64,000 nucleotides of DNA from an uncultured Chloroflexaceae bacterium. Lineage in GTDB: Bacteria; Chloroflexota; Chloroflexia; Chloroflexales; Chloroflexaceae. The DNA lies in NCBI GenBank assembly GCA_964410555.1, contig CAYPHM010000009.1, positions 7,488-71,487 of the forward strand. The letters run 5' to 3'. The notes below the pieces were generated by a model. The model ran no database searches, had not been told where the DNA came from, and worked only from the letters and a program-made list of their open reading frames with translations. Shown here piece after piece: positions 19,502-52,760 of the stretch. The stretch's first letter is position 1; each line of letters starts with the position of its first letter. The translations under genes and the position numbers were made by a program.

Positions 19502-19541
19502 AGTTCTTCTCCTTCTATTATGTGGATACCAAACCAACTAC

Positions 19542-20183: not shown

Positions 20184-20223
20184 AGTTGTTCTTCTTACTA
20201 TAACTGGATACCAGACCGAACAC

Positions 20224-20883
20224 TTACAAACCGAGCGAACGCTTCAACTCTTCCAATTCGGCATCAACCGCCGAATCCTCGTCTAGCTGTTGAAATTCAG
20301 ACTCCAACGAGCTGGATTCTAGCTGCGCCATCGCTTCTGTTTGGGCGACCTGATGATCCACCCGCTGCTCCATCTGGTCGAGCTTGTCCATTGCAGACTT
20401 CCCACCCATCGCGGCTGAAGCCCCTCGTATTGCCTGCATCGTCTGCATGCGATTCTTCTTGGCAACGATAAGATCGCGGCGGGCTTGCGTTTCAGTTATC
20501 CGCGACTCCAGTAAGGCTAACGCTTCTTCCAAATCGTCTACCTGCTCGTCTTGTGCAGCATACTGCTTTTCATACTGTTCTGCAAGTTGACGGGCTTGGA
20601 GTTTTTGTTGCAACGCCTGCTTTGCCATATCTTCATTGCCATCACGCAGCGCAATCTCTGCCCGTCTTTGCCAGCGTTCTTTATCACTTTGAGCCGTGAT
20701 CATCTGCTGGTATAGGCGGCTTTCGTCTGCCATTGCCTGTGCCACCTGCGTCTTGGCTTCATAATACTGCTCGTTTAGTTGGCGCAGGTACTCATTTGCC
20801 ATCTTTTCCGGGTCTTCAGCTTTGGTAAGCATGTCGTTGACATTGGAACTGATAAGGTCTTTGACCCGTTCTAGGAGAGCCAT
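20224..20883 (-). CDS. pspA: PspA/IM30 family protein, tandem copy 2 of 4
   Basis: MALLERVKDLISSNVNDMLTKAEDPEKMANEYLRQLNEQYYEAK.. with a full-length PspA-type coiled coil. Confidence 0.9.
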   Translation of the reverse strand: MALLERVKDLISSNVNDMLTKAEDPEKMANEYLRQLNEQYYEAKTQVAQAMADESRLYQQMITAQSDKERWQRRAEIALRDGNEDMAKQALQQKLQARQLAEQYEKQYAAQDEQVDDLEEALALLESRITETQARRDLIVAKKNRMQTMQAIRGASAAMGGKSAMDKLDQMEQRVDHQVAQTEAMAQLESSSLESEFQQLDEDSAVDAELEELKRSLGL

Positions 20884-20913
20884 ACAGTCATGCTCCTTTC
20901 TTGCAAGGTTACG

Positions 20914-21573
20914 TTATATTCCCATACTACGTTTGAGTTCTGCCAGTTCTGAATCCACTCCAGAGGTCATCTCCATCTCACGAAACTGATTATCTAGTGT
21001 ATTCGACTCAAGCTCCGTCAATGCCTCGGCTTTGGCTAGACGATCATCTACCTTTTCCTCAAGCTGGTCGATTTTGTCCATTGCGGAGATTTTGCCCATG
21101 CTGTTGACGGTGGTTTGGAGAGATTCTTGGGTGCGGGCGCGGTTTTGCTTGGCGGTAATGAGGTCACGGCGAGCTTTGGTCTCACCTATCTGCGTTTCTA
21201 AGTTTGCCAGTGCATCTTGCAATTTGTCTACCTGATCAGACTGGGCTTCATATTGCTGCGTGTACTGCTGAGCGAGACGTTCGGCTTGTTTTTTGCGTTG
21301 TAGGGCTTGTTTTGCCAAGTCCTCTTTGCTAGATCGTAGGGCTTGCTCTGCCATGCCCTGATATTTCTCAAGCTCTTTTTCGGCTTCAACCATTTTTTGC
21401 TGAAGCCGGGTCTCGTCTGCCATTGCCTGTGCCACCTGAGTTTTCGCTTCATAATACTGCTGGTTCAGTTGGCGCAGGTATTCATTGGCCATTTTTTCTG
21501 GGTCTTCCGCTTTATCCAATGCATCATTGACATTCGCACTGAAAAAGTCTTTTATTCTTCCAAAGAACGACAT
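20914..21573 (-). CDS. pspA: PspA/IM30 family protein, tandem copy 1 of 4
   Basis: MSFFGRIKDFFSANVNDALDKAEDPEKMANEYLRQLNQQYYEAK.. RBS AAAGGAGG lies upstream. Confidence 0.9.
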   Translation of the reverse strand: MSFFGRIKDFFSANVNDALDKAEDPEKMANEYLRQLNQQYYEAKTQVAQAMADETRLQQKMVEAEKELEKYQGMAEQALRSSKEDLAKQALQRKKQAERLAQQYTQQYEAQSDQVDKLQDALANLETQIGETKARRDLITAKQNRARTQESLQTTVNSMGKISAMDKIDQLEEKVDDRLAKAEALTELESNTLDNQFREMEMTSGVDSELAELKRSMGI

Positions 21574-22613: not shown

Positions 22614-24164
22614 TTACGCTCGCACCACTGTCACCACCCGCCCGGTGGGGGTCGTTGCCTGTTCCGTTGTCGTGCGCTCGGCTATTCGTCCCTGGTCGCT
22701 CCGCTGGTCAAAGATGACAAGCCACCCCGTCTCCAGCGACAAGCCACTGAGGTATTTGTCCAGTTGCGCTAACCCTTGTGGCAGCGGGTCAGATTCCCTA
22801 TCTCGCCAGACCTTCAGTTCCAGCGCGAGAGCTTGGGTGCCATAGCGTACACACAAGTCCATGCGTCCACTGCCAATCGCATACTCCCGTTCTATCGTGC
22901 CGCCTGAGTTGACCACCCGATGCAAGAACGCCATCAGCACGAGGTGCGGGGCGATCTCGTGGTAGGAGGCAGTTCTGAGCAAGGGTTCGCCGTGCTGCCG
23001 CCAGAAAAGCAAAAAGGCTTCCAATAGTTTGTTGAAGTCTAGGTTGCCGTCAGGGGTGCGCCATGTATCCTGGATATGAGGCAGCGATGCTTGAGTCGTA
23101 TACGCCAATACTCGCGGTAAGACTTCTTGGTAGATAGGATTGGCAATCACTAATCCCCCCGCCTGATCCATACGGCACAGTCCAAGATTTAGCACAAACT
23201 TGATGTCATCGGTTGGGATGTCATCCAACGTTTGTCCTGCCAAGATCGGTTCTATCACCTGCTGTACCCGTGGCTCCCGCAGTCGCTCTGCCAAACTGTC
23301 GAGGTGGGTATCCTGCCGTTGGATGAGGATTTCTTTTGCCGCGTCTATATGCTCCGGTGTGATAGGCATAGTCGGGTCAGGGACGAGGTTTTCCACGACT
23401 TGTCGGGCGAGCGCATTGACTAACCAGGGCTGCCCCTGGGTGAGGTGAAATGCCCGTGCTACCGCTTCAGGGGTGAACACCTGCCCCGTATCTTCCGTGT
23501 GTTGCTGATAGAGCATCCCGACTTCCTCGTGGGTAAAGTTGCGGAGCGTGATAGATTCTACTTTGATGTTGAAGGGGCTAGAGGTATGCAACCTATCACT
23601 CCCCCCCGAAGCGACTTTGTAGTCGCGTACATCTCGTAAGCCAATGAGTGCCAACGACCACGGGAATGCATCGGGTCGTCGCGGATAGCCGTCACGCAAT
23701 TGGCGTAATACCGAGATGAGGGTCGTATTGCTCAAGGCATCTATTTCATCGAGAAAAATCACCAGTGGGCGGGGCAGGGCTTGCACCCAATGTTCTAAAG
23801 CGGTGCTAATCCCTGCTCCTTCTGATACTTGAGACCATTCAGGGGGGTAAAATTCTTGGGGGAGTTGCCATTTGGCTGCCGCACGCCACCGATTTAAGAT
23901 AGCAGCTTCTGCCTTGTCCACTTCATCATTGAAGGCTGCGCCAACTTCCATCGAAACGAAGACCGCAATATAGGTTCCCTCTGCGGTCAGTTCTTTGGCA
24001 AGCGACCACAATGCCGTGGTCTTACCCGTCTGTCGCGGGGCATGCAGTACAAAATACAGTTTTTGATCAATAAGCCGTTGCACCTGCGGCAGCCGAGCCA
24101 TAGGGGAAAGCATGTAGTGATCTTGGGGATTGCACGGTCCGGCGGTATTAAACCAACGTTTCAT
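22614..24164 (-). CDS. AAA-type ATPase with C-terminal PD-(D/E)XK-like motif, copy A
   Basis: Walker A HAPRQTGKTT, Walker B LVIFLDEID, C-terminal GRMDLCV..ALELKV. The ATG at 24164 matches the start of copy B. Confidence 0.8.
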   Translation of the reverse strand: MKRWFNTAGPCNPQDHYMLSPMARLPQVQRLIDQKLYFVLHAPRQTGKTTALWSLAKELTAEGTYIAVFVSMEVGAAFNDEVDKAEAAILNRWRAAAKWQLPQEFYPPEWSQVSEGAGISTALEHWVQALPRPLVIFLDEIDALSNTTLISVLRQLRDGYPRRPDAFPWSLALIGLRDVRDYKVASGGSDRLHTSSPFNIKVESITLRNFTHEEVGMLYQQHTEDTGQVFTPEAVARAFHLTQGQPWLVNALARQVVENLVPDPTMPITPEHIDAAKEILIQRQDTHLDSLAERLREPRVQQVIEPILAGQTLDDIPTDDIKFVLNLGLCRMDQAGGLVIANPIYQEVLPRVLAYTTQASLPHIQDTWRTPDGNLDFNKLLEAFLLFWRQHGEPLLRTASYHEIAPHLVLMAFLHRVVNSGGTIEREYAIGSGRMDLCVRYGTQALALELKVWRDRESDPLPQGLAQLDKYLSGLSLETGWLVIFDQRSDQGRIAERTTTEQATTPTGRVVTVVRA

Positions 24165-24251
24165 GGGATGGTCTCCTTGTGTGTTTCCTTCCATACCTAA
24201 TTTCTTCTCTGTATAGTACCATATAATCAGCAAAAATGAACGATTCCTAGA

Positions 24252-25628
24252 CTAATCACGTCCCGACTCGCGTTCATCATCCACTTCATCTTCATCCCCA
24301 TCACCTGGATAGATGATACGTACCATATCTACGGCAAACCCACTCACGCTTTCAACGATAAAGAGAGTCTGGGCGATTGCTACCTGATCACCTGGAATCG
24401 CCGGGCGACCAAGCAAACTCACCACTAACCCCCCAACGGTATCTACATCCGGGAGTTCTTCATCTCCATCATCTGGCAATATCCCAAGCGCAGCATCATC
24501 CAAATCATCAAGCATTAAATCACCACGAGCAAAAAACATCCCTGGCTCAACCTCATAGAGTAAGGGTTGCTCTACCTCGTCAAACTCATCATGCACTTCC
24601 CCTACTACCTCTTCCACAACATCCTCCAACGTTACAACCCCCGCTGTCCCCCCATATTCATCAAAGACCAGTGCCATATGAATGTGGGAATGTTTGAATG
24701 CTGCCAGTAATCGGTCTACCATCATCGCTTCTGGCACTGCTGGCATATGACGTAAAAGGGACTTCAAGTCCATACTGTCTGGTTGTTCAAGCTGCTGCTG
24801 CACAAAGTCTTTCACGAGAAGCAAGCCAACAATATGGTCTAAGTCATGCTCATAGACGGGGAATCTGCTGTAAGGGGAGGTAGCGATATAGTCGCGTAGC
24901 TCTTGCTCCCCTATATCCACAGGGATTGCCTCAATACGAGGGCGTGGGGTCATCACCTGCCCCACCCGTCGCTCGCTGAGGTCAAAAATATTTTGGATAA
25001 TGCGCTGTTCATCATCACTCAGCATCCCCCCCTTGTGGCTCTCCATCACGACCAATGCCAACTCTTCTGGTGAATAGAGCCGACGATGGCTTTCTATCCG
25101 GGGGATATTCAACACCCGCAATACCGTATTGCCAAAGCCGTTTAGCAAGATGATCAATGGGAGAAAGACCAACCGCATAAAGCGCAAAAACCCATTCACC
25201 CCTAGCATTATGCGCTCAGGATGATGCAACGCAAGCGATTTTGGTATCACATTGCCGACTACCACAAGCAGCAAGGTCATCACCGAGAGGGCAACAAAGA
25301 ACCCTGCCCCCCAAGCAACCGAGGGTGTCCATGCGCCCCACTGTACAAACACCTTTTGTAGATACTCAGCGATACTATAGACTCCAACCATACCCAGGGC
25401 AAGACTTGCTAGGGTAATACCAAACTGTGCAGCAGTAATGAACGAATCCATCTCCACCGAGTCGTCAAGGAGCATGACCATACGCTCGATATGTGGGTCT
25501 CCTTTTTCCATCATTTCTTTGAGACGTGATGGACGTGTCCCAATAAGCGAAAATTCCGCAGCAACAAATATCCCGTGTATGGTCAACAAAATAGCGACCA
25601 TTACCAGCGGGATGAGCATGATGCTCAT
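24252..25628 (-). CDS. CNNM/DUF21 membrane domain, CBS pair and CorC_HlyC domain protein (hemolysin/CorC family)
   Basis: N-terminal four TM segments with AEFSLIG, a CBS pair region, and a C-terminal transporter-associated domain with an acidic tail. Confidence 0.85.
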   Translation of the reverse strand: MSIMLIPLVMVAILLTIHGIFVAAEFSLIGTRPSRLKEMMEKGDPHIERMVMLLDDSVEMDSFITAAQFGITLASLALGMVGVYSIAEYLQKVFVQWGAWTPSVAWGAGFFVALSVMTLLLVVVGNVIPKSLALHHPERIMLGVNGFLRFMRLVFLPLIILLNGFGNTVLRVLNIPRIESHRRLYSPEELALVVMESHKGGMLSDDEQRIIQNIFDLSERRVGQVMTPRPRIEAIPVDIGEQELRDYIATSPYSRFPVYEHDLDHIVGLLLVKDFVQQQLEQPDSMDLKSLLRHMPAVPEAMMVDRLLAAFKHSHIHMALVFDEYGGTAGVVTLEDVVEEVVGEVHDEFDEVEQPLLYEVEPGMFFARGDLMLDDLDDAALGILPDDGDEELPDVDTVGGLVVSLLGRPAIPGDQVAIAQTLFIVESVSGFAVDMVRIIYPGDGDEDEVDDERESGRD

Positions 25629-26968
25629 GTATCTTCTCCATCTGCATCTTGTACAAGCGGTGTATTGTCCGTTGTAGAGAAATTGAGCGATACTTCTACC
25701 ACTGTTGGACCGTTGACCGCCTCCACTCGAAGAGTAACATCTTCCAAAACGACCTCATCCCCCACCTGTGGCAATCGCCCAAGTATAGCCATAGTCAACC
25801 CCCCTAGCGTATTGACCTCTTCGTCTGGCAATTTCAACCCAAATCGTTCATTGACATCTACTATGCGAGATTCGCCTTGCAGACGCAACCAACCATCACG
25901 CCCTAGTGTCATAAAGGTATTGCACGTATCAAATTCATCTTGCAATTCGCCGAACATCTCTTCCAGCAAATCAGAAACCGTTATCATTCCCGCTGTACCA
26001 CCAAATTCATCAAGCACTACCGCAATGTAATTTCCCTCTTGTTTCAGTTGATTCCATACCGCTAAGACGGGCATGGTTTCATGAACATAGGATACAGAAC
26101 GGAGTACATCTTGAACGTAGGTATTGTTTTCAGTATGCAACCGGAAGAGGTCTTTGATATGTATGCTCCCGACTACAGTATCTATCGTATCGGTGTAGAG
26201 CGGGATACGTGATCGCCCCGAATCTGTTGCCAAAACCAGTAAGTCATGAAGCGAAGTCTTTACTGAAGCAGCAACCATGCGAGTACGCGGGACCATCACC
26301 CTCGTTGCAGTAAGTTCTCCTACACGCAAGACATTGTGCAACAACTGGCGTTCGTCTGCCTCTATCAATCCCCAACGAACACTCTCCATAGCCAGTTGCT
26401 CTATTTCCTCTGGTGAAAGGATGTGTCGTCGTGTAGCGGGGGTAATCCCAACGATACCAAGTAAGAAGGCAGCAATGCCATTACACACCGCAATAGCCGG
26501 GCGAAACAGAGCCAACGACCATCGCATAAGTGGCACCGAAAAAAAGGCTACCCCTTCCACATAGCGAAGAGCCAATGACTTGGGGAGCAACTCTCCTATC
26601 ACCATCTGCAAAAGGGTCAGGAGCACCAACAGTCCAATGGTTATCAGCACGTATATTCCTAGTATATGGTCCCAACCAGCAGCAAGCAGGGTTGGATGGA
26701 GATAGTGGACAACCACCCACTGCCCATAAAAGCCAAGCACCAAACTGGAAATTGTGACCCCTATTTGGCTGGCGGCAATGTAGGTGTCAAGTCGATGTGG
26801 ATTGCTAATGATGGTTTTGAGAAACTTTGCAGCTGGACTTTCCGATGCTCGGTACTGAGCAAGCCTGGCAGGTTGGGCATGAATGGTCGAAAACTCTGCT
26901 GCTACATACAACCCATTGACAAAGATTAACACGGAGATTAGCGCAATAATAACCAGCGCAGTTTCCAT
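25625..26968 (-). CDS. CNNM/DUF21-CBS-CorC_HlyC protein, tandem paralogue
   Basis: Same architecture (AAEFSTIH, CBS pair, CorC C-terminal domain). Its stop overlaps the downstream start by 4 nt. Confidence 0.85.
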   Translation of the reverse strand: METALVIIALISVLIFVNGLYVAAEFSTIHAQPARLAQYRASESPAAKFLKTIISNPHRLDTYIAASQIGVTISSLVLGFYGQWVVVHYLHPTLLAAGWDHILGIYVLITIGLLVLLTLLQMVIGELLPKSLALRYVEGVAFFSVPLMRWSLALFRPAIAVCNGIAAFLLGIVGITPATRRHILSPEEIEQLAMESVRWGLIEADERQLLHNVLRVGELTATRVMVPRTRMVAASVKTSLHDLLVLATDSGRSRIPLYTDTIDTVVGSIHIKDLFRLHTENNTYVQDVLRSVSYVHETMPVLAVWNQLKQEGNYIAVVLDEFGGTAGMITVSDLLEEMFGELQDEFDTCNTFMTLGRDGWLRLQGESRIVDVNERFGLKLPDEEVNTLGGLTMAILGRLPQVGDEVVLEDVTLRVEAVNGPTVVEVSLNFSTTDNTPLVQDADGEDT

Positions 26969-27217
26969 AAATTACCTCATCAGAAGATTCCAATCTCCAG
27001 AGAACCCACATAGTTCTTTCTGGATACCATCATTCTACTGGTAATCAAGGCGAGTTTGCAAGAAGCAATTGGGATTGTAAGAATGGTGTACAATACAAAG
27101 GGGTCTTGAAATTGTTAGGAGTTTGTCTACAAGATACGCAAGAGTTACCTTTTAAGCGTTCCCTTTCCCCTATGGGTGCAAATTAAATGATACTGAAACA
27201 CACAAGGAGATCATCCC

Positions 27218-28768
27218 ATGAAACGTTGGTTTAATACCGCCGGACCGTGCAATCCCGAAGATCACTACATGCTCTCCCCTATGGCTCGGCTGCCGCAGGT
27301 GCAACGGCTTATTGATCAAAAACTGTATTTTGTACTGCATGCCCCGCGACAGACGGGTAAGACCACGGCATTGTGGTCGCTTGCCAAAGAACTGACCGCA
27401 GAGGGAACCTATATCGCTGCGTTGGTCTCCATGGAAGTTGGCGCAGCCTTTCCTGATTCTATTGACAAGGCAGAGTATGCCATTTTGGGCAGTTGGTATG
27501 GCTCGCTAACCGTTGAATTACCGCCTGAATACCACCCTCCCAAATGGACAGATACCGGAGAGGGCTTTGGTATCAGTATGGCATTACAGACATGGACGCA
27601 GCAAGCATCACGTCCGCTGGTGCTCTTTCTCGACGAGATAGATGCGCTGAGTAACATGACCCTCATCTCAGTATTACGCCAATTGCGGGATGGCTACCGG
27701 TTACGTCCCCAAGCGTTCCCGTGGTCGTTGGCACTCATTGGCTTACGAGATGTGCGCGACTACAAAGTCGCTTCGGGGGGGAGTGATAGGTTGCATACCT
27801 CTAGCCCCTTCAACATCAAAGTAGAATCTATCACGCTCCGCAACTTTACCCACGAGGAAGTCGGGATGCTCTATCAGCAACACACGGAAGATACGGGGCA
27901 GGTGTTCACCCCTGAAGCGGTAGCACGGGCATTTCACCTCACCCAGGGGCAGCCCTGGTTAGTCAATGCGCTCGCCCGACAAGTCGTGGAAAACCTCGTC
28001 CCTGACCCGACTATGCCTATCACACCGGAGCATATAGACGCGGCAAAAGAAATCCTCATCCAACGGCAGGATACCCACCTCGACAGTTTGGCAGAGCGAC
28101 TGCGGGAGCCACGGGTACAGCAGGTGATAGAACCGATCTTGGCAGGACAAACGTTGGATGACATCCCAACCGATGACATCAAGTTTGTGCTAAATCTTGG
28201 ACTGTGCCGTATGGATCAGGCGGGGGGATTAGTGATTGCCAATCCTATCTACCAAGAAGTCTTACCGCGAGTATTGGCGTATACGACTCAAGCATCGCTG
28301 CCTCATATCCAGGATACATGGCGCACCCCTGACGGCAACCTAGACTTCAACAAACTATTGGAAGCCTTTTTGCTTTTCTGGCGGCAGCACGGCGAACCCT
28401 TGCTCAGAACTGCCTCCTACCACGAGATCGCCCCGCACCTCGTGCTGATGGCGTTCTTGCATCGGGTGGTCAACTCAGGCGGCACGATAGAACGGGAGTA
28501 TGCGATTGGCAGTGGACGCATGGACTTGTGTGTACGCTATGGCACCCAAGCTCTCGCGCTGGAACTGAAGGTCTGGCGAGATAGGGAATCTGACCCGCTG
28601 CCACAAGGGTTAGCGCAACTGGACAAATACCTCAGTGGCTTGTCGCTGGAGACGGGGTGGCTTGTCATCTTTGACCAGCGGAGCGACCAGGGACGAATAG
28701 CCGAGCGCACGACAACGGAACAGGCAACGACCCCTACCGGGCGGGTGGTGACAGTGGTGCGAGCGTGA
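27218..28768 (+). CDS. AAA-type ATPase with C-terminal PD-(D/E)XK-like motif, copy B (inverted duplicate of copy A)
   Basis: The last ~345 aa are identical to copy A. The N-terminal ~65 aa are near identical and residues ~67-175 are diverged. Confidence 0.8.
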   Translation: MKRWFNTAGPCNPEDHYMLSPMARLPQVQRLIDQKLYFVLHAPRQTGKTTALWSLAKELTAEGTYIAALVSMEVGAAFPDSIDKAEYAILGSWYGSLTVELPPEYHPPKWTDTGEGFGISMALQTWTQQASRPLVLFLDEIDALSNMTLISVLRQLRDGYRLRPQAFPWSLALIGLRDVRDYKVASGGSDRLHTSSPFNIKVESITLRNFTHEEVGMLYQQHTEDTGQVFTPEAVARAFHLTQGQPWLVNALARQVVENLVPDPTMPITPEHIDAAKEILIQRQDTHLDSLAERLREPRVQQVIEPILAGQTLDDIPTDDIKFVLNLGLCRMDQAGGLVIANPIYQEVLPRVLAYTTQASLPHIQDTWRTPDGNLDFNKLLEAFLLFWRQHGEPLLRTASYHEIAPHLVLMAFLHRVVNSGGTIEREYAIGSGRMDLCVRYGTQALALELKVWRDRESDPLPQGLAQLDKYLSGLSLETGWLVIFDQRSDQGRIAERTTTEQATTPTGRVVTVVRA

Positions 28769-31315: not shown

Positions 31316-33340
31316 ATGTCCTTAGAACGACCATCGTTTAGTACTATGCTTCAACCCCGCCATTGGTCGCTGCATGTGCCGACATTTCGTTGGCTACTTC
31401 CGCTTGCAATAGGCAGCATAGCCCTACTCTTGTTTGTCACAGAAGTATGGCTTTTTTCCCATACCTACCCCCAAATTCGGTTACAACCGGAGAGCAACGA
31501 AGCGGTCTCGGTGCTCGATGGCTTTCATGCGGTGGAAACAGACGGACGCGGGGACTACCGTTGGACAACCAGCAACAGTACGTTGCGGTTTATCCAGTTT
31601 GGGCGTGGCGATACGCTCATCTTTGGCTTGACGCTTGGCCCTGCTCCGCCTACAGGTGCGCCATCACACGTCCGTATAGCCTATGGGGATGCGCCAAAGC
31701 AAGTCAAGCAACGGCAACCTCTGGTGTTGCCATTGGATGAACATGGCAAACCGCGCACCTATCGGTTGCTTGTCCCCCCGGAATACTGGACATCTGCTAA
31801 TCTGACCGTCCATCTCCAGAGTGCCACTACCGCTGTTGCCCCAGACACGCGCCAAGTTGGGCTACGCCTAGAGGGGGTAACGTTGGGGTTTCTCAGCAAA
31901 GGTATGGCTTATCCCCCACTGGCAAGCATACTTGTCCAGTTCCTCTTCCTGGCAACATGGACACTGCTGCTGTATCGGTTGCATACTCCCCCGCTCATCC
32001 TCATCGGCGTAATAGTGGGCATTGCCCTATTGCTCTTACTGCTCTACCACCTGCACTTGCTCTTGATGTATCGCTATCTCGTGCGCTTGCTGTTGGTATC
32101 GGGGGTATTGCTCCTGCTCACCTATGCTATCTTGCCCCAAGCAGAACGGTATGCCGGCTGGATTGCGCCTGCGCCACTGATGCGGTTGTTGTGGGGTGTT
32201 ACCATGTTGGCGTGTATGCTGCGGCTCGGCGGGTCGCTCTACCCCAACTTTGCTGCCTATGACCTCTCACTCAATGTGGGAAGGTTGCTTAGTACCCTCT
32301 ACGGTACTCTCGTTGACACCAATAACTCGATTGAGTTTCGTAATGGGGTGACAGTCTATCCATCCGGTCCCTACGTACTGCTGCTGCCAGGCGTATTGGC
32401 TCATATCCCGTTGCCATTACTGGTCATGAGTGGGGTTGCGCTTATAGATGGCTTTGGGGCATTGACCGTTGCGGCAATGGCGCGGGTATTTGGGATGAGC
32501 CAACGTACTTCCCTATTTGCTGCGCTATTCTATGCGGCTATCCCCATCAACCTGACTGCGCTTTGGTGGGGGCTATCGGCGCAGGTCTTTGGACAAGCGT
32601 TAATGCTCCCATTGACCATTGCCTTACTGGTCGCGTTTCAGCCGCCGTGGAACAAGGCTGCTGACACCCACCAAGAACGGTTGCGTAACCGGGGGTGGTT
32701 ATGGTTTGTGGTGTTGTTCAGTATGGCGTTGCTCTCGCATATCGGCGTGGCTATCCTAGCCGTAGCATGGCTTGGGTTGGTATGGGGTGTCCTATGGCTA
32801 CGTCACACCCTGCCAATGGCGGTCTGGTGGAGCTATACGCTCAAATTGACCATCAGCATTTTGATAGGTGTTGCGTTAGTCTATGCAACAGCAGCAGTAC
32901 TGATTGTTACGGAGTTTTTGGCTGTTGGTAACAAAGTTGCCACAAGCGACTATGTGCCTGCCTATTGGCTTATCTACCGTGGCTTCAAAATTGCCTTTCA
33001 CGAGCTTGGCTTTTGGCTGATGATTCCTGGGTTGTTGCTCTTTTGGCGCAGGTCTCTGCCAGTAGGGGGGCATGTGCTCGTTGGGAGTTGGCTTGGCATA
33101 GTGGCTATCTTTTGGGCTATTGAGATGCTAACTGCCCTCCAGGTGCGCTATATCTACTTTATGGTTCCGTTGGTCTGTATTGGCATTGGGCTATTGCTTG
33201 ATACGTTGGCTCGTCGGGGGATGTCGGGGTATGCTGTGGCGTGGGCGGTGATCGTGGTCTTGCTCTTTACGGGTAGTGCCTACTGGTATATCAGCACGTT
33301 TACAGGCGAGATGATGTCCGTGTCTCCCCTGTTGCGCTAG
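31316..33340 (+). CDS. Large polytopic membrane protein with an N-terminal extracytoplasmic domain (possible GT-C-like glycosyltransferase, unverified)
   Basis: One TM segment, a ~150-aa soluble segment, then at least 12 hydrophobic helices. No catalytic motif recognised. Confidence 0.5.
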   Translation: MSLERPSFSTMLQPRHWSLHVPTFRWLLPLAIGSIALLLFVTEVWLFSHTYPQIRLQPESNEAVSVLDGFHAVETDGRGDYRWTTSNSTLRFIQFGRGDTLIFGLTLGPAPPTGAPSHVRIAYGDAPKQVKQRQPLVLPLDEHGKPRTYRLLVPPEYWTSANLTVHLQSATTAVAPDTRQVGLRLEGVTLGFLSKGMAYPPLASILVQFLFLATWTLLLYRLHTPPLILIGVIVGIALLLLLLYHLHLLLMYRYLVRLLLVSGVLLLLTYAILPQAERYAGWIAPAPLMRLLWGVTMLACMLRLGGSLYPNFAAYDLSLNVGRLLSTLYGTLVDTNNSIEFRNGVTVYPSGPYVLLLPGVLAHIPLPLLVMSGVALIDGFGALTVAAMARVFGMSQRTSLFAALFYAAIPINLTALWWGLSAQVFGQALMLPLTIALLVAFQPPWNKAADTHQERLRNRGWLWFVVLFSMALLSHIGVAILAVAWLGLVWGVLWLRHTLPMAVWWSYTLKLTISILIGVALVYATAAVLIVTEFLAVGNKVATSDYVPAYWLIYRGFKIAFHELGFWLMIPGLLLFWRRSLPVGGHVLVGSWLGIVAIFWAIEMLTALQVRYIYFMVPLVCIGIGLLLDTLARRGMSGYAVAWAVIVVLLFTGSAYWYISTFTGEMMSVSPLLR

Positions 33341-33751: not shown

Positions 33752-36700
33752 ATGTCTACCTTCACCATGGATGCCAATGACCCCGCTATTGATTCCTACT
33801 ATGCCCAATTGCGCCAGTATCGCCAGCAACAGGCATCCCACGAAATGGCTATCCGTCAAGCCTTCGCCAACTTGTTGGAGCGCGTCTCAGCCACTGTTAC
33901 CTGGACGCTCATCTTGGAGCGGACGCTCGACAACCGCGCTCGCCCCGATGGGGTGCTGCTGGATACCCTCCGCATCCCGCGGGGCTATTGGGAAGCCAAA
34001 GACCCCAACGATACCCTCGATGAAGAAATAACCAAGAAAATCGAGCGGGGCTACCCCACCTTCAACACCATTTTTGAGAATAGCGAACGCGGCGTGTTGT
34101 ATCAGTATGGCAAGGTCGTGTTGGACGTAGACTTGCGTAGTCCTAGCGAGTTAGCCAAGCTCCTCTCGCGCTTTTTCAGCTACACCGGTGCCGATATTGA
34201 GAAATTCAACGCAGCAGTGCGGGAATTTCAAGAGCGCATCCCCCTGCTTGCCCACGAATTGATAGCCCGTATTGACCAGGAGTTTGCCGACAATAGCGCG
34301 TTTCAAAAAGCGTTTACCGCCTTTCATACGTTGTGTCAACAGTCTATGCATCCCAACATCAGCCGGGGCGTGGTCGAAGAAATGCTGGTGCAACATCTGC
34401 TCACCGAGCGGCTCTTCCGTACCATCTTTGACAACCCCGAATTTGTGCAACGCAATGCGATTGCTGCCGAAATCGAAACGGTGATTACGGCACTCACCAG
34501 TCGAGCGTTTAGCCGACGGGATTTTTTTGGGCAACTAGATACGGTGTATCATACGATTGAAGAGAATGCACGGCGTATTGAGGATTTTACCGCGAAACAA
34601 CCCTTCTTAAATGTCGTCTACGAACGCTTTTTTCACGGCTTTTCGGTGAAGCAAGCGGACACGCACGGCATTATCTACACGCCGCAAGCTATTGTAGATT
34701 TTATGTGTGCGAGTGTGGAAGAGGTATTGCAACAAGAGTTTCACCTGACGCTTGCCTCACCGAGGGTACAGATACTCGACCCATGTGTGGGGACGGGCAA
34801 CTTCATGCTCAACCTGCTTCAGCGTATCCCCAAGCGCGACCTAGCACGAAAATATGAGCACGAATTGTTTTGCAACGAGGTCTTGCTTTTGCCCTACTAT
34901 ATCGCCTCGTTGAATATTGAACACGCCTATTTTACCTTAATGCAGCAGTATCAAACGTTCCCTGGCATCTGTTTGGTAGATACGCTCAACCTTGCCGAAA
35001 GCCAACAACAAACGTTTTTCAACGAAGTGAATAGCCAGCGGATGGCACGGCAAAAAGATGCCCAATTGATGGTCATTATCGGCAATCCTCCCTACAACGT
35101 GGGGCAGCAAAACGAAAACGACAACAACAAAAACCGTCCTTATACGGTGATAGACGAAAAGATACGCACAACGTATGCCAAAGACTCTCGTGCCAGCAAC
35201 AAAAACGCCTTGAGTGATATGTACGTCAAGTTTTTTCGTTGGGCAGTAGACCGTCTCGAAGACCGCGATGGCATCGTGTGCTTTGTGACCAATAACTCTT
35301 TTGTCAATCAAATCGCTTTTGATGGTATGCGTAAGCATCTTTTGCAAGACTTTACCCACATCTATCACCTTGATTTACATGGCAATGTCCGGCAGAATCC
35401 CAAACTCTCAGGAACGAAACACAATGTATTTGGTATTCAGGTGGGGGTAGGCATAACTATTGCCATACGCAATCGGAAGAATCCTACTTGTGGGTTGCGC
35501 TATTTTCGTGTGCCTGAGTATTGGGATAGAGAAGAGAAATATGCTTTTTTGGCAACAAAAGGAGCTATTCAATATATAGCGTGGCAAGAATTACAGCCAG
35601 ATGCCAAAGGAAATTGGCTCACTGAAGGGTTACATGCTGAGTTTGCTACCTTTTTGCCCTTGGGTACAAAACCAGCCAAAGCAGACAACCGACACGATGT
35701 CGAAACGATATTCAAGACCTATTCAATAGGAGTTCAAACAGGACGTGATAGTTGGTTATATAATTTTCACAGAGAAGAACTTATTACAAAAGCTCGTATG
35801 ATGATAAAGACCTACAATGCAGAACTATCACGTTGGATACGAGCGGGAAAGCCAAAAGATATAGATGATTTTGTCTTGGCAGAATCCAGCAAAATCAAGT
35901 GGAGTAGTCGTCTCAAAGAGTGCTTTGTGCGTGAAATAAAGGCTACTTTTCATAAAGACAATATTCGACATGGGCTTTATCGTCCATTTACCCGGCAATA
36001 TTTTTACTTTGATAGTATTATGACCCATCGTCAAGGGCTATTTCCCTACATCTTCCCCACACCCGCCAGCGAAGCCGAGAATGTGGTCATTTGCGTGAAT
36101 ATGACCAATGAAAAACCGTTCACTTGTCTTGTAACAAATACTATACCGAATTTGGTTGTTACTGGGGGATTTGGTTCAGCAACGCAATGTTTCCCCTTCT
36201 ATACCTACGACGAGGACGGCAACAACCGCCGCGAGAATATCACCGATTGGGCAGTGCGCCAGTTTGCCGTACACTATGGACTACCTATCACCAAGTGGGA
36301 CATCTTTCACTACACCTACGCCCTGTTGCACCATCCCGGCTACCGCGAACGCTACGCCGAAAACCTCAAGCGCGAGCTACCTCGCATCCCCATGCTTGGC
36401 ACAAGCGACACCTTCACGACCCTGGTAGCCATTGGGCAGCAGTTGCGTCATCTGCATGTGGAGTATGAAACCGTCGAAGAACATCCCGCATTGGAATGGG
36501 GAGAAAACAAGGCGGTGCCGTGGTCGTGGCAAGTGCAGAAGATGAAGCTCAACCGGGAGAAAACCGCTGTTATCGTCAATCCAAGCCTGACGATAACGGG
36601 TATTCCCCCAAGCACGTTTGCCTATCAGTTGGGCAGTCGTTCGGCATTAGAATGGGTGATAGACCAACACCAAGTCAAAACCGACAAGCGTAGCGGCATC

Positions 36701-36826
36701 ATCAACGACCCCAATCGGGCGGATAACCGCGAATACCTAGCGCGGCTCGTGGGACGAGTTGTTACCGTGAGCGTGGAGACGATGGCGTTGGTGGAGCGGC
36801 TAGGTGCGGAGGTGGATGTGGGGTAG
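33752..36826 (+). CDS. Fused restriction-modification enzyme (Type IIG/ISP-like): PD-ExK-like N-terminus plus gamma-class N6-adenine DNA methyltransferase plus specificity region
   Basis: N-terminal RPDGVLLD..RGYWEAKD (D..ExK), motif I ILDPCVGTGNF, motif IV GNPPYNVGQ, and a long C-terminal region. No helicase domain. Confidence 0.75.
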   Translation: MSTFTMDANDPAIDSYYAQLRQYRQQQASHEMAIRQAFANLLERVSATVTWTLILERTLDNRARPDGVLLDTLRIPRGYWEAKDPNDTLDEEITKKIERGYPTFNTIFENSERGVLYQYGKVVLDVDLRSPSELAKLLSRFFSYTGADIEKFNAAVREFQERIPLLAHELIARIDQEFADNSAFQKAFTAFHTLCQQSMHPNISRGVVEEMLVQHLLTERLFRTIFDNPEFVQRNAIAAEIETVITALTSRAFSRRDFFGQLDTVYHTIEENARRIEDFTAKQPFLNVVYERFFHGFSVKQADTHGIIYTPQAIVDFMCASVEEVLQQEFHLTLASPRVQILDPCVGTGNFMLNLLQRIPKRDLARKYEHELFCNEVLLLPYYIASLNIEHAYFTLMQQYQTFPGICLVDTLNLAESQQQTFFNEVNSQRMARQKDAQLMVIIGNPPYNVGQQNENDNNKNRPYTVIDEKIRTTYAKDSRASNKNALSDMYVKFFRWAVDRLEDRDGIVCFVTNNSFVNQIAFDGMRKHLLQDFTHIYHLDLHGNVRQNPKLSGTKHNVFGIQVGVGITIAIRNRKNPTCGLRYFRVPEYWDREEKYAFLATKGAIQYIAWQELQPDAKGNWLTEGLHAEFATFLPLGTKPAKADNRHDVETIFKTYSIGVQTGRDSWLYNFHREELITKARMMIKTYNAELSRWIRAGKPKDIDDFVLAESSKIKWSSRLKECFVREIKATFHKDNIRHGLYRPFTRQYFYFDSIMTHRQGLFPYIFPTPASEAENVVICVNMTNEKPFTCLVTNTIPNLVVTGGFGSATQCFPFYTYDEDGNNRRENITDWAVRQFAVHYGLPITKWDIFHYTYALLHHPGYRERYAENLKRELPRIPMLGTSDTFTTLVAIGQQLRHLHVEYETVEEHPALEWGENKAVPWSWQVQKMKLNREKTAVIVNPSLTITGIPPSTFAYQLGSRSALEWVIDQHQVKTDKRSGIINDPNRADNREYLARLVGRVVTVSVETMALVERLGAEVDVG

Positions 36827-47769: not shown

Positions 47770-47942
47770 GGGGCGGGGACAACAACCCGTGTTCCCCCCT
47801 GCCCCCTGCTCCCATAGGGCGAGGGGGAGCCGATTCCCCTTCTCCCATGTAGTGGGGCGGGGCAAGAGGATGAGGACTGCCCGGTGCTCGTTCCCCTTCT
47901 CCCACATAGTAGGACGCGGACGGAAAACGGGGGGATGAGGAT
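47770..47942. repeat. GC-rich modular repeat cluster (degenerate A/B units)
   Basis: TTCCCCCCTGCCCCCTGCTCCCATAGGGCGAGGGGGAGCCGATTCCCCTTCTCCCATGTAGTGGGGCGGGG... Confidence 0.85.
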
Positions 47943-47995
47943 TGACCTATGCAAGGGGCAAGAAGGGGGATGCAACAACCTGCTGCTCGTGGCTC

Positions 47996-48412
47996 CTATT
48001 CATCCGTGTATCCCTCAGTGGCAGCCTTGCGGATCGTTTCTTTGATAGATTCCAGTTCTGCCCGTTCTGCATCAGTCCATGTATGCAACTTGAGGGCTTC
48101 TGAAAAGTAGGCATCTATCATTGCTTGGTGGTGTTCATGGGTAATGCCCATAGTCCCAAGTTTGCGATCTGCCCACCCAAACTCTGCTGTCACAAGTTGC
48201 GTATCAATACCGGCACCAGCCATCACAATATCGTGAAACCGCTCCGCGGTGAGGTCCATATTGTGGTGATGGTGCTTCACGGGTGCCGTGTCTTTGTTGG
48301 AGATGCCTACCACAGGGATTTGAGCAAAGAGGACTTCACCCACCTGATGTTGTAATTCTTCACGGATAGATTCTAGTTTGGTTAAAACGGCGGTATGGAC
48401 ATCTTCTGTCAT
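47996..48412 (-). CDS. Hypothetical His-rich helical protein (138 aa)
   Basis: ORF with an acidic C-terminus and HHHH/HEHH patches. No family recognised. Same strand, 87 nt downstream of the PAS/B12/STAS operon. Confidence 0.45.
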   Translation of the reverse strand: MTEDVHTAVLTKLESIREELQHQVGEVLFAQIPVVGISNKDTAPVKHHHHNMDLTAERFHDIVMAGAGIDTQLVTAEFGWADRKLGTMGITHEHHQAMIDAYFSEALKLHTWTDAERAELESIKETIRKAATEGYTDE

Positions 48413-48499
48413 GGTGATTACCCCTTCCTAAAAATGTCTCCACAGATAGTCGTCACTATGCCATAGCAAAAAAACGACAAGAATACCCAAGAAAATCGC

Positions 48500-48964
48500 T
48501 TATTCTTGGTCAAGGAGATTATTGAGTCTGCTGGTAAGTCGGGCTTGGTCTTTGCTCAGGCGGCGAATGAGGTTGGTCAATTCGCTATTCATCGCCAGCA
48601 CTTCATGGTAGATAGTCGTCAGTTGAGGCGGTTCGCATGCCCCCATCATTACCCACACCCCAAACTGGATCAAGCCAGCGCGGGTATTGACAAGGAGCGT
48701 ATCCGTCTCCAACGTCTTGAAAAAGAGTTCCCAAGTATTGCTGACTTCCCCCACCTGAAATCCTTGGACTTGGGCAAAAAACCGCTCTCCTTTGGTGCTA
48801 GATTTTGGGGACATCAGCGTCAGAAACGATTTTCCCAAAATATCTTCCCCAAAGAGATGAAAGGCAAGATCATTGGCTTCTTGAATAACGCCCGCTGTTG
48901 TGCCGACAAGCAGAATGTCATGGCTCAGTTTGCCAAGCATAGGAGGTATTGTTGTCTGAGTCAT
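48500..48964 (-). CDS. PAS-like sensor plus coiled-coil protein lacking STAS (paralogue of the N-terminal half of the 305-aa protein)
   Basis: Alignable by eye to residues ~40-185 of the 49621-50538 product (..G.I..AN.LA......G.SF...........KG.RFF.......W.L..). ATGA overlap with the upstream B12 gene. Confidence 0.55.
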   Translation of the reverse strand: MTQTTIPPMLGKLSHDILLVGTTAGVIQEANDLAFHLFGEDILGKSFLTLMSPKSSTKGERFFAQVQGFQVGEVSNTWELFFKTLETDTLLVNTRAGLIQFGVWVMMGACEPPQLTTIYHEVLAMNSELTNLIRRLSKDQARLTSRLNNLLDQE

Positions 48965-49614
48965 CCTACTACCTCGTTTGCCAGATGTACTGCCTCACGG
49001 GCATTCCTAGCGGTCATATCGGCACCCACGGTCTTATACATACTTGGGGAACGATTGACCGGTTGCCCACCAAAGAAGATTTTGACTTGTTCGCCAATAG
49101 GGGAAGAACGCACCGCATGGATGAGATCGCGTGCTCGTGGGACGTGGTTGTTGAGCGTCACAGAAATAGCCAGAATATCTGCTCGCCGATCATTCACCAT
49201 ATTGACCACATCTTCAACGGGCATATTGGCTCCCAGGTAATAGACATCCCATCCTTCTATTTCAAAGAAATCTGCGACCATCCGAATACCGAGTTCATGC
49301 AGCTCGCCGCCGATGCATGTCGCTACCATCGTCTTGCCGCGTGATGGTTTGGCAAAGACATGGGCATAGAGCTGCGCCATCACACTCTGGGTAATCGCAG
49401 TTGCGAGGTGTTCTTGTGCCACGGTGATTTCGTTGGTCTCCCAAAGCCGCCCTATTTCATGCATAGAGGGCTGAAAGACATCCATATAGAGATCGCGTAT
49501 GTCAACACTGGCATCGAGCGCGGAACGCGCTATATTGAGCGAACGCCGGCGATCACCATCACGTAGTGCAGCGACATACTCGTCATATATTTGGTGAATA
49601 TTGTTGGTACTCAC
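48961..49614 (-). CDS. Stand-alone cobalamin (B12)-binding domain protein with a CarH-type cap (no DNA-binding domain)
   Basis: Helical cap with W-x9-EH (LWETNEITVAQEH). Rossmann module with ExHxxG (GELHELG), SVT and FFGG. GTG start lies 6 nt after the upstream stop. Confidence 0.85.
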   Translation of the reverse strand: MSTNNIHQIYDEYVAALRDGDRRRSLNIARSALDASVDIRDLYMDVFQPSMHEIGRLWETNEITVAQEHLATAITQSVMAQLYAHVFAKPSRGKTMVATCIGGELHELGIRMVADFFEIEGWDVYYLGANMPVEDVVNMVNDRRADILAISVTLNNHVPRARDLIHAVRSSPIGEQVKIFFGGQPVNRSPSMYKTVGADMTARNAREAVHLANEVVG

Positions 49615-49620
49615 AATGTT

Positions 49621-50538
49621 CTACCCTTCTTTCATTTTTCCAAATACATACTGGATAGCCCGGTTCAAATTGTTGTGAATAATAACATCTTGCATAGGTA
49701 TACCAAGATGAACGATAGTTTCGGCAATACTTGGATTTATCCCAACGATGACGGGGGTAGCTCCAAGTAACCGAAGGGCTTGAACCATACCCATCAGCGC
49801 ACTGGCGATAGTTATATCTATCATGGTTAGCCCACTCATATCAAGAATAACGTACTCTGCTTGATAGGTACTGACGCTGGTCAGCAAGTCTTCGGTAATT
49901 TTTTCTGCCCGTCCACTGTCTATATGCCCCACAAGCGGCAGGAGGAGCACATTGTCCCACAGGGGAACAGCGGGGGCGGTTAGGTCTCGTATTGTTTGGA
50001 GTAGGTGATGTTGTTCGTCAATAAGGGCTTGTAAGGAGCGATTTTGGCGGCGCAACTCGCGTTGGGCTTCGGCAAGTTCAGAGGTCAGTTCTATCATTTC
50101 TTGCTGAATATCGCTTACTTCCTGTGGTTCAGGATACCCCACAAGGACGACTACATCCTCGCTCCGATACCCACGAAATGTCACCACTTTGTAAACCTGG
50201 TCCTCTTCACCAAGGGCTAGTTCCCAAGCACTGGTAGGAGTGTGTGGGTAAGTCTGTTTCGCCTCTTCAAAGAATCGTTGCCCTTTTGTCGTTGCTGTGG
50301 CATGCAGCATGTGGGTAAAAGATTCTCCCGTTAAGCCTCTTGTGGACCACTGTTGAGCTAAGGCGTTGGCGTAGAGAATGGTCCCTTGCCCATCACAGCA
50401 AAGAATAATCTCGGTGAGCAGGTCATAAAGCGGTACTTCGATTGGTACTTTCAAAGGAGCTACATGGTTCATGTCAGTAGAAAAATGCCCCGCTATGGTG
50501 GCGTTGTGTTCCGTCATCACGGTTCGGTGCTTGTTCAC
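49621..50538 (-). CDS. PAS-like sensor, coiled coil and RsbR-type STAS domain protein
   Basis: C-terminal VPLWDNVLLLPLVGHIDSGRAEKI..ILDMSGLTMIDITIA..IVGINPSIAETIV. GTG 50538 or ATG 50517 as start. Confidence 0.8.
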   Translation of the reverse strand: MNKHRTVMTEHNATIAGHFSTDMNHVAPLKVPIEVPLYDLLTEIILCCDGQGTILYANALAQQWSTRGLTGESFTHMLHATATTKGQRFFEEAKQTYPHTPTSAWELALGEEDQVYKVVTFRGYRSEDVVVLVGYPEPQEVSDIQQEMIELTSELAEAQRELRRQNRSLQALIDEQHHLLQTIRDLTAPAVPLWDNVLLLPLVGHIDSGRAEKITEDLLTSVSTYQAEYVILDMSGLTMIDITIASALMGMVQALRLLGATPVIVGINPSIAETIVHLGIPMQDVIIHNNLNRAIQYVFGKMKEG

Positions 50539-50647
50539 GTTACATCTTGCTTTACCTATCTATTATACCACGCCTTTTCTGCTGTTGCTTTGTATTGTAT
50601 GGGTGTGGCAGATATTTTTCCCTCGTCATAAAAGGGAACTATAGCCC

Positions 50648-50894
50648 CTGCCTTTCCCCTCTCAAGGGTGGGTCAGCCGGGCAAAACCCACTAGGTTATT
50701 CCCCCCATCCCCTGCCCCTCTCGACACCCTCTCCCCCTGCCCCCTCTCGACACCCTCTCCCCCTGCCCCCTCTCCCATAAAGGGCGAGGGGGAGTTGCCC
50801 GGTTCCCCTTCTCCCGTGTAGCGGGGGAAGGGGCTAGGGGATGGGGGGATGCACGGTGGGGGAAGGGTCTAGGGGGGAGCGGGTGGGAAAGCGA
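50648..50894. repeat. GC-rich modular repeat cluster (D, A x3, B units) bracketed by a bipartite inverted repeat
   Basis: TCAAGGGTGGGTCAGCCGGGCAAAACCCAC, three CTCCCCCTGCCCCCTCTC units, and a B unit with GGGGGAAGGGGCTAGGGGATGGGGGG. Flanking IRs are at 50615-50647 and 50895-50942. Confidence 0.9.
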
Positions 50895-51000
50895 GGGCTA
50901 TAGTTCTTTTGTTCGGCAACAGTAGCTATGACGAGGGAAAAACGTCTGCCACATACCGGGGGGGACGTTCTTACAAAAAACTCCTTTCTCCCTGTGCCTA

Positions 51001-52534: not shown

Positions 52535-52760
52535 TCCCCGTTCCCCCTACTCCCCGCTCCCCCTGCCCCCTCTCCCATTCCGTCCCCTCTCCCCCTGCCC
52601 CCTCTCCCATTCCAGGGCGAGGGGGAGTTGCCCGGTTCCCCTTCTCCCGTGTAGCGGGGGAAGGGGCTAGGGGATGGGGGGGCTGCTCGGTGGGACGCGG
52701 GGCTAGGGGATGGGGGGGCTGCTCGGTAGGACGCGGGGCTAGGGGATGGGGGCTGCCCGG
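52535..52760. repeat. GC-rich modular repeat cluster (A x2, B x3)
   Basis: CTCCCCCTGCCCCCTCTCCCATTCC twice, then GGTTCCCCTTCTCCCGTGTAGCGGGGGAAGGGGCTAGGGGATGGGGGGG and two GGGACGCGGGGCTAGGGGATGGGGG units. Confidence 0.9.

Follow-up and report, generated by a model that had tools for sequence, protein, structure and literature searches.

We analysed a 64,000-nucleotide (nt) stretch of DNA (hereafter the window) from an uncultured Chloroflexaceae bacterium (GenBank assembly GCA_964410555.1, contig CAYPHM010000009.1, positions 7,488 to 71,487 of the forward strand), focusing on four consecutive minus-strand genes, here called g1 to g4 in gene order, that probably encode the subunits of a cobalamin-based photoreceptor with a STAS output. 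An earlier note on this DNA had described the first three genes as a candidate cobalamin- or light-responsive partner-switching module and the fourth as a histidine-rich open reading frame (ORF) following on the same strand. All four ORFs were confirmed exactly in coordinates and strand, as were the 6-nt spacing between g1 and g2 and the ATGA overlap between g2 and g3, both read from the sequence. The features of the locus are as follows.

49621..50538, minus strand: g1 (305 amino acids, aa), PAS-like adaptor, long helix and RsbR-type STAS domain in a YtvA-like architecture
50131..50436, minus strand: PAS-like adaptor domain of g1, residues 35-136, with the signature C48, K85, F89 and W105
49984..50124, minus strand: linker helix of g1, residues 139-185, of the Jalpha or coiled-coil type
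49627..49968, minus strand: STAS domain of g1, residues 191-304
48961..49614, minus strand: g2 (217 aa), stand-alone cobalamin-binding protein assigned to the photocobilin lineage
48500..48964, minus strand: g3 (154 aa), PAS-like adaptor and helix, no output domain; paralogous to the N-terminal part of g1
47996..48412, minus strand: g4 (138 aa), predicted globin-fold protein with six helices and an invariant His cluster
50638..50665, minus strand: weak promoter-like site about 100 nt upstream of g1, TTGAGA-16-TATAGT, with only 10/12 consensus matches

The 87-nt gap ahead of g4 carries a purine-rich Shine-Dalgarno-like sequence (GGAAGGGG). The start of g1 is uncertain: its first 30 residues are unconserved and modelled with low confidence, and a 95%-identical homologue (P0121) begins at the equivalent of Met8. 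No credible match to a cobalamin riboswitch or other RNA element was obtained around the operon at E up to 1, and the counts of intrinsic terminators and promoters were near shuffled expectation, the promoter-like site listed above being the only one. G/C-rich intergenic repeat elements (47801-47952, 50604-50953 and 52551-52752), which may belong to a MITE-like (miniature inverted-repeat transposable element) or REP-like (repetitive extragenic palindromic) family, flank the operon and a neighbouring gene. Three 36-nt repeats beginning 'GGGGCTAGGGGATGGGGG' occur among these elements, and the region upstream of g1 contains nested inverted repeats with 27-, 22- and 19-nt arms as well as a 26-nt tandem duplication (50715-50766).

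The cobalamin-binding protein g2 gave two Pfam matches above the gathering score, B12-binding_2 (PF02607, residues 11-82, E 1e-19) and B12-binding (PF02310, residues 96-208, E 5e-25), corresponding to a four-helix-bundle cap followed by a Rossmann B12-binding domain. These two domains are the only ones in its 217 aa, and the MerR DNA-binding domain is absent, as the earlier note had stated. The motifs on which that note had relied were all present, namely the W-x9-EH cap (LWETNEITVAQEH; W58-x9-E68-H69), ExHxxG (GELHELG, containing H106) and SxT/GG (S151-x-T153 and G182-G183), and they proved near-completely invariant: in an alignment of 35 homologues, W58, E68, H69, H106, S151, G182 and G183 were invariant and T153 was conserved in at least 90%. 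The signature of light-responsive cobalamin domains (GxxW, EH, GxxH and GxxxP; PMC11796333) was found at G55-W58, E68-H69, G103-H106 and G128-P132, with G55, W58, E68, H69, H106, G128 and P132 invariant across the same homologues. When the g2 family profile was compared with the PDB, the photocobilin SasPcob (8J2W/8J2X) was the best match (E 2e-34), with AerR (7TE2) at E 5.6e-8 and CarH (5C8A) at E 9e-8. The earlier note had taken AerR/PpaA and CarH-type proteins as the relatives of g2; its call of a photoreceptor-type cobalamin domain stands, and the nearest relatives are instead photocobilins. Close membership of the AerR/PpaA group was rejected on these values and on the lack of an adjacent PpsR-like gene bearing a helix-turn-helix (HTH), and CarH membership was rejected on the lack of a MerR domain and on a score of 63 bits against the NCBIfam model TransRegCarH (cut-off 400).

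A scan for g2 homologues, with one genome per species, returned 79 loci (numbered below with the prefix L). The sixteen closest (56-99% identity) were all from Chloroflexales. A photoglobin was fused N-terminally to the B12 domain in 57 of the 64 nearest non-Chloroflexales loci (45-53% identity), which came from Anaerolineae, Acidobacteriota, deltaproteobacteria, Verrucomicrobiota, Azospirillum, Heliorestis, Bacteroidota and others; g2 itself carries no globin, the globin g4 being encoded separately, two genes further downstream. Because its closest relatives of solved structure are photocobilins, the light-response signature is invariant and 57/64 outside homologues are photoglobin fusions, we assign g2 on sequence grounds to the stand-alone cobalamin domains of the photocobilin lineage. 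Every feature by which light-responsive cobalamin domains are recognised in sequence is present in it, and it would be expected to bind adenosylcobalamin (AdoCbl) and to undergo Co-C photolysis. A Polyangium homologue of g2 (L002) had no g1-, g3-, g4- or photoglobin-like neighbour; therefore, not every stand-alone g2 relative belongs to such a module.

The neighbourhood of the trio described in the earlier note was found to be conserved. The full g1-g2-g3-g4 order, with overlapping or abutting genes, was present at 12 Chloroflexales loci (the window, L001, L005, L007, L008, L009, L011, L012, L013, L082, L083 and L086), among which g1 identity fell to about 45%. Duplicates were left out of this count (L003, 99% identical to the window; L084 and L085, equal to L083). 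Independent public gene calls gave the same four overlapping genes. Directly after g2, g3 was found in 14 Chloroflexales loci (33-48% identity), and g4 shared an operon with g2 in 15; L016 carried g2 alone, and L017 and L018 run into a contig edge. A narrow-alignment metagenome scan with g4 yielded one further locus, L082. The module appears to be self-contained, because the flanking genes differ between module loci. All 48 full-length g1 homologues were of the Chloroflexales type, and the family was restricted to this order of filamentous anoxygenic phototrophs (Chloroflexaceae, Oscillochloridaceae, Roseiflexaceae and Viridilinea). In L083-L085 (1-3714) the module lies two genes away from a CobN/Mg-chelatase H-type gene (1266 aa).

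The output end of the module was examined in g1. Its AlphaFold2 (AF2) model (predicted local distance difference test, pLDDT, 81.6) shows a five-stranded PAS fold at residues 35-136, a single 47-residue helix at 139-185 and a STAS domain at 191-304. Pfam detected the STAS domain (residues 194-280, E 7e-16), and PAS matches in g1 and g3 were sub-threshold in Pfam; the domain calls of the earlier note are thus confirmed by Pfam for STAS and B12-binding and by the predicted g1 fold for PAS. Foldseek returned YtvA (2MWG) as the best full-length match (E 7e-13, 278 columns), followed by RsbR (7B0U) and RsbS (6JHK), with a target template-modelling (TM) score of up to 0.91. In phmmer searches the STAS domain matched Listeria RsbR at E 7e-22, RsbS at 1e-11 and SpoIIAA at 5e-4. 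The structure matches and the phmmer result uphold the RsbR-type assignment, and the model suggests that g1 is the output subunit, with a sensor, a linker helix and an RsbR-type STAS domain arranged as in the RsbR/YtvA co-antagonists. The phospho-acceptor residues of RsbR are T171 and T205 in B. subtilis RsbRA. Those of Listeria RsbR (the Thr of 'IDT' and of 'VDT') align with S208 and I242 of g1, and the first of these positions is Ser/Thr in 28/34 homologues.

Further STAS genes were observed in the window and at related loci. A second sensor-STAS gene lies 35 kb from the module (12941-14947, minus strand) and encodes a 668-aa protein with three to four PAS domains and an RsbR-type STAS domain (E 1e-35 to a hidden Markov model, HMM, of the g1-type STAS); therefore, the genome carries several RsbR-like paralogues. 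In L082 (273-2325) and L086 (2479-4498), upstream of the module, a FIST gene adjoins a separate 263-aa STAS protein on the opposite strand. In L007/L008 (19-5043) the module is directly preceded on the same strand by a PAS-STAS gene, a gene for a 1172-aa protein that joins ClpB-like double AAA+ domains to a HicB-like N-terminus and to a PCRF (release-factor) domain, and a gene for a second B12-binding protein, a paralogue with 55% identity to g2; no kinase or phosphatase was found in this extended array. The Anaerolineales-order locus L043 (4110-7840) contains, in order, REC, a 130-aa STAS protein, a 228-aa HATPase_c_2-type kinase, a photoglobin-B12 protein, an adaptor-histidine kinase and a REC-kinase, which shows a photocobilin next to partner-switching-like genes outside Chloroflexales.

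The paralogy between g3 and the sensor region of g1 proposed in the earlier note was borne out by BLASTP (29% identity over 139 aa, E 4e-13) and by comparison of the family profiles (99.5% probability, hhalign). In g1, C48, N58, F74 and W105 were invariant in 34 sequences, and the linker helix carries the highly conserved 'LTSELAEAQRELRRQNR', which aligns with the helix ahead of HisKA in photocobilin-associated kinases. With HMMs built from g1 residues 35-185, an adaptor ORF was detected directly downstream of the B12 gene in 41/61 informative non-Chloroflexales loci, and 37 of these 41 ORFs were soluble histidine kinases of ~400-450 aa. Pfam detects only HisKA and HATPase_c in the photocobilin-adjacent kinases, and their N-termini (~170 aa) matched the g1 adaptor at 98.8% (E 6e-17) and the g3 adaptor at 98.7% (E 4e-16) by hhalign. 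The signature residues were shared as follows.

Adaptor Cys48: g1 34/34, g3 10/13, kinase N-termini 28/30
Adaptor Lys85: g1 33/34, g3 13/13, kinase N-termini 28/30
Adaptor Phe89: g1 33/34, g3 13/13, kinase N-termini 30/30
Adaptor Trp105: g1 34/34, g3 13/13, kinase N-termini 29/30

These results identify the g1/g3 'sensor' as a dedicated PAS-plus-helix adaptor. The suggestion that the B12 protein works through its flanking PAS-like proteins is strongly supported by the recurrence of the same PAS-helix unit after B12 genes in 41/61 loci. Since four loci keep an adaptor-kinase after the B12 gene without any photoglobin, the pairing of B12 domain and adaptor appears to be the core that is conserved, and the globin an accessory part. 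Examples of adaptor-kinases after photoglobin-B12 genes (L019-L081) are found in L020 (6660-7862), L075 (1706-3049) and L046 (6650-8002); cultured organisms with a photocobilin gene and a PAS-helix kinase gene downstream of it include Rhodohalobacter sulfatireducens (L047), Desulfoferrobacter suflitae (L031) and Heliorestis acidaminivorans (L069). In Adhaeribacter aquaticus (L044) the gene downstream of the photoglobin-B12 gene encodes a 171-aa adaptor-only protein that is g3-like.

The 138-aa ORF g4 (47996-48412) exists on the minus strand as the earlier note described it, and it is not the bystander that its listing implied: it has a predicted globin fold and is fused to g3 in some genomes. 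The AF2 model contains six helices (pLDDT 80.6, predicted TM score 0.78), and Foldseek against the PDB returned globins only, with allophycocyanin and other phycobiliproteins first and neuroglobins next (TM 0.6-0.7). No match was found in Pfam (including PF00502), NCBIfam or the PDB sequences. The family is tiny (35 clusters at 50% identity among 1.84e9 representatives) and has invariant histidines at H47-H49, H60 and H94. In L001, L004, P0235, P0238 and P0248, the counterparts of g3 and g4 are joined in a single chain of 294-314 aa (298 aa in L001). Direct hhalign comparison of the g4 and photoglobin families gave P 7e-4 to 1e-3 (probability 20-27%) over 99-148 in-register columns, against P 0.05-0.35 for reversed controls. 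Through intermediates the match reached P 1.5e-4 to 6e-8: distant g4 relatives matched the core g4 family at 99.3% and photoglobin at 52% (P 1.5e-4), and the globin of L063 matched photoglobin at 94.7% and the distant g4 relatives at 68.7%. By these profiles the L063 globin bridges the two families; its locus, from Anaerolineales (5992-8412), encodes a stand-alone B12 protein, a stand-alone 144-aa globin and an adaptor-histidine kinase, in that order. A core motif is in register between photoglobin ('YHLSYLAEAL.A.DP.LF.DYV.WAKVLF.GL') and g4 ('RFH..VQAG.T.DW.LV..EF.WA.R.L...G'). Photoglobins are marked by an Asp conserved in helix 3 (D49) together with a hydrophobic helix-4 residue (L80) (PMC8717448), and SasPcob binds biliverdin through the conserved Asp D270 (PMC10979010). 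Helix 4 of g4 carries the conserved F78 and W80. We therefore assign g4 to the globins with high confidence on the basis of its predicted model, consider it quite likely to be a divergent photoglobin, and regard it as probably the detached photoglobin of a split photocobilin.

Taken together, we consider, with a probability of roughly 60%, that the products of the four genes together make up a single photoreceptor of the photocobilin lineage, split into subunits and connected to a STAS output. From the observed domain identities, predicted folds, photoreceptor signature, gene order, gene fusions and adaptor-kinase homology, we infer the following course of events. The g2 protein would bind AdoCbl so that its Trp-x9-Glu-His cap lies over the corrin and His106 beneath it. 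Light in the green, blue or UV range would break the Co-C bond and shift the conformation or oligomeric state of g2, as in CarH and the photocobilins. The g4 protein would act as a detached photoglobin-like partner that packs on g2 as the globin does in photocobilins, possibly with a second tetrapyrrole of its own to tune or extend the response. The PAS-plus-helix adaptor of g1 and g3 is the likely docking site for the B12 sensor, and perhaps for the globin. In this arrangement g3 would tether the globin, to which it is covalently fused in some genomes, and would probably pair with g1 through their homologous helices; alternatively, g2 may itself dock on the PAS adaptors. The sensor state would then travel down the g1 helix to the RsbR-type STAS domain, as in YtvA, and the STAS domain would act on partners encoded elsewhere, for example a stressosome-like assembly or an RsbT-like kinase. 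Outside Chloroflexales, the same sensor-adaptor logic would drive a histidine kinase; in Chloroflexales, an RsbR/YtvA-type STAS domain stands in place of the kinase, and the globin is detached from the B12 domain.

We compared the module with known systems. Schneider et al. (2021) defined the photoglobins and described their coupling to B12 domains and their operons with kinases; photoglobin-B12 operons with STAS and SpoIIE were found mainly in actinobacteria (PMC8717448). Zhang et al. (2024) showed that both AdoCbl and biliverdin are bound by photocobilins, which can regulate partner proteins through direct interaction with them; they also noted a predicted STAS/SpoIIE link for SasPcob and considered the function of stand-alone photocobilins still unclear (PMC10979010). 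Separate genes for a globin (BBAG-2) and a B12 protein were described in Myxococcales by Rockwell et al. (2023) (PMC10151467). The earlier note had been aware of no description of this wiring. The general concept of a photoglobin-B12/STAS link (PMC8717448, PMC10979010) and split B12 and globin genes (PMC10151467) are in fact already published, whereas the split architecture of the module, the orphan globin and the adaptor-to-output logic are new. Searches of open-access papers and bioRxiv preprints turned up no account of this four-gene arrangement in Chloroflexales, none of the g4 globin family, and none that defines the PAS-helix adaptor as a domain common to STAS and kinase outputs.

Among characterised proteins, g2 is closest to SasPcob and shares the cap and His signature of the photocobilins (SasPcob 8J2W/8J2X, AbDPcob 8J2Y; PMC10979010). 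In photocobilins and other photoglobin-B12 proteins, as in the module, a globin is genetically coupled to a cobalamin domain; for those proteins an association with signalling genes, including STAS, had been predicted (PMC8717448, PMC10979010). However, the module globin is encoded by its own gene or fused to the PAS-helix protein, and not to the B12 domain. It has diverged strongly (without a PF00502 match or a recognisable bilin-binding Asp), the output is an RsbR-type PAS-helix-STAS protein, and the module is confined to Chloroflexales. The pairs of a photocobilin and a PAS-helix kinase (Anaerolineae, Acidobacteriota, deltaproteobacteria, Heliorestis, Rhodohalobacter and others) likewise have an adaptor directly downstream with the Cys, Lys, Phe and Trp residues in common; their output is HisKA plus HATPase_c, with one adaptor copy and a globin fused N-terminally to the B12 domain, whereas the Chloroflexales module has a STAS output and two adaptor copies. 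The BBAG-2 clusters of Myxococcales resemble the module in having a stand-alone globin of the photoglobin lineage beside a stand-alone B12 protein, but they also contain a pre-PcyA bilin reductase, their globins were shown to bind biliverdin, and no PAS-STAS or PAS-helix genes have been described for them (PMC10151467). A bilin-synthesis gene was not seen in the loci that we examined.

The YtvA/RsbR co-antagonists of the Bacillus and Listeria stressosome share with g1 the order of sensor, Jalpha helix and STAS domain, and the g1 STAS domain is most similar to that of RsbR. Unlike YtvA, g1 has a PAS domain that is not a LOV domain: its conserved Cys is on the first strand, outside the flavin-binding motif of LOV domains (NCRFL). 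The proposed light sensor would act in trans as the B12 protein, and no rsbS, rsbT or rsbU neighbours were found. CarH and the AerR/PpaA proteins, which act on CrtJ/PpsR, share with the module a cobalamin domain (stand-alone in AerR, fused in CarH), the four-helix cap and action by protein-protein interaction, and the partner of AerR also has PAS domains and a long helix. They are far more distant in sequence (E ~1e-7). The module has neither a MerR domain nor an HTH-bearing partner, and its output is therefore not expected to be a DNA-binding repressor.

Several results weigh against a complete photoreceptor with a STAS output. RsbS, an RsbT/RsbW-type kinase, a PP2C phosphatase and a sigma factor were not found in the 64-kb window, small gap ORFs included, and rsbS, rsbT/W-like kinase, PP2C and sigma genes were not found in the Chloroflexales loci L001-L015 and L082-L087. 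The earlier note's statement that RsbS, RsbT, anti-sigma and sigma genes are absent from the window holds for every scanned ORF, although it missed the second sensor-STAS gene at 12941-14947; with no kinase, phosphatase, RsbS or sigma gene in the window or at any Chloroflexales locus, the partner switching that it proposed is left unsupported. The second phospho-site of g1 is Ile242 in the window copy alone (codon 49813-49815), where 28/34 homologues have Thr/Ser. The gene set is also incomplete at some loci: L004 and L006 have no g1 upstream, L010 lacks g3, L015 has only g2 and g4 without g3, and L014 has g1 and g2 alone without g3 or g4. The g3 copy of the window has Gly at the adaptor Cys position (codon 21, ~48902-48904), which is Cys in 10/13 homologues. 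In g4, the direct profile match to photoglobin is weak (P ~1e-3), and the biliverdin-binding Asp is not recognisable, with three alignments placing H50, N51 or A56 at that position; its placement in g4 rests on an uncertain alignment.

The strongest rival explanation is that the module senses a chemical state and not light, with g2 reading cobalamin availability or cobalt redox state, g4 carrying haem or another tetrapyrrole for oxygen or redox sensing, and the signal passing to the STAS domain. Parallels would be the action of AerR/PpaA or AppA on PpsR/CrtJ and, in Vibrio, the RsbR that has a haem globin. It draws on g4, which lacks the bilin-binding Asp yet has invariant His47-49, His60 and His94 in a globin fold, and on AbPcob, which has His at the Asp position and binds biliverdin poorly (PMC10979010). 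AerR-type proteins take cobalamin as a ligand, AerR (7TE2) is a detectable relative of g2, and the g1 model also resembles PpsR N-Q-PAS1 in Foldseek. However, all four light-response elements of g2 are invariant, including the Wx9EH cap that accommodates the adenosyl group (PMC11796333), and the closest solved relatives of g2 are photocobilins whose light activity was established experimentally. We consider this explanation unlikely as a replacement for the photoreceptor; light and chemical roles are not mutually exclusive.

On a second explanation the genes are neighbours and not one machine: g3 would be a partial copy of g1 in decay, g4 a small helical protein unrelated to the others, and g1 an RsbR paralogue of the ordinary kind whose PAS domain has a ligand of its own. 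The loss of the conserved adaptor Cys from the window's g3, the absence of g3 or g1 at some loci and the further sensor-STAS genes scattered in the same genomes would fit it. It is nevertheless very improbable, given that g3 is kept in 14 loci at 33-48% identity with an intact frame and a start/stop overlap with g2, that g3 and g4 are fused in frame in at least five proteins, and that the same adaptor follows B12 genes across many phyla. The reading of g2 as a corrinoid methyl-transfer protein (MtbC/MtgC-like) for a methyltransferase encoded elsewhere is close to refuted: several g2 homologues carry the JGI name 'methanogenic corrinoid protein MtbC1', pyl_corrinoid is the top NCBIfam match (80 bits) and the methyl-transfer corrinoid proteins 1Y80 and 7XCN match the g2 profile at E ~1e-23, but 80 bits is far under the 215-bit cut-off (another corrinoid model gave 77 against 370), the photocobilins match better by eleven orders of magnitude, the gene neighbours that are conserved encode signalling proteins, and no methyltransferase gene was found in any of the ~20 Chloroflexales loci, so that g2 does not group with such proteins in the way that the earlier note had allowed for.

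If the four genes do form a photoreceptor split into subunits, a more specific natural 'split photocobilin' can be envisaged, which we put forward tentatively and hold to be doubtful in its full form. First, the globin would have exchanged the bilin-binding Asp for the invariant His cluster, and hence might take up another tetrapyrrole, either haem or a bilin bound in a new way, or might provide a His ligand to the cobalt in trans after photolysis. Second, a g1:g3 PAS-coiled-coil heterodimer would hold the complex together, so that in filamentous anoxygenic phototrophs light and redox signals would jointly feed a stressosome-like STAS hub. Third, the PAS-helix adaptor would be a general docking domain by which stand-alone photocobilins in many phyla control neighbouring histidine kinases.

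Other features of the window were recorded outside the module. Four tandem PspA/IM30 paralogues (231, 213, 219 and 219 aa) lie on the minus strand at 18842-21573 and are followed on the same strand by two large ORFs without a Pfam match (17190-18545 and 15235-16452). At 22614-28768, a tandem CNNM/CorC transporter gene pair sits between two AAA_35/AAA_16-type ATPase genes (539 and 516 aa). A Type ISP restriction-modification enzyme (1024 aa) is encoded on the plus strand at 33752-36826; the 674-aa ORF ahead of it (31316-33340) matched nothing in Pfam.

The study of B12-based photoreception is still young, and this locus and its relatives point to a concrete partner for the B12 sensor, namely a PAS-helix adaptor with a Cys/Lys/Phe/Trp signature that is invisible to Pfam. 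In most phyla the adaptor would couple this sensor to a histidine kinase, and in Chloroflexales to an RsbR-type STAS domain. Because the sensor, globin, adaptor and output are already separate proteins in Chloroflexales, the module is suited to reconstitution and to the design of modular green-light optogenetic tools. For the filamentous anoxygenic phototrophs that carry it, the module is a candidate light sensor.

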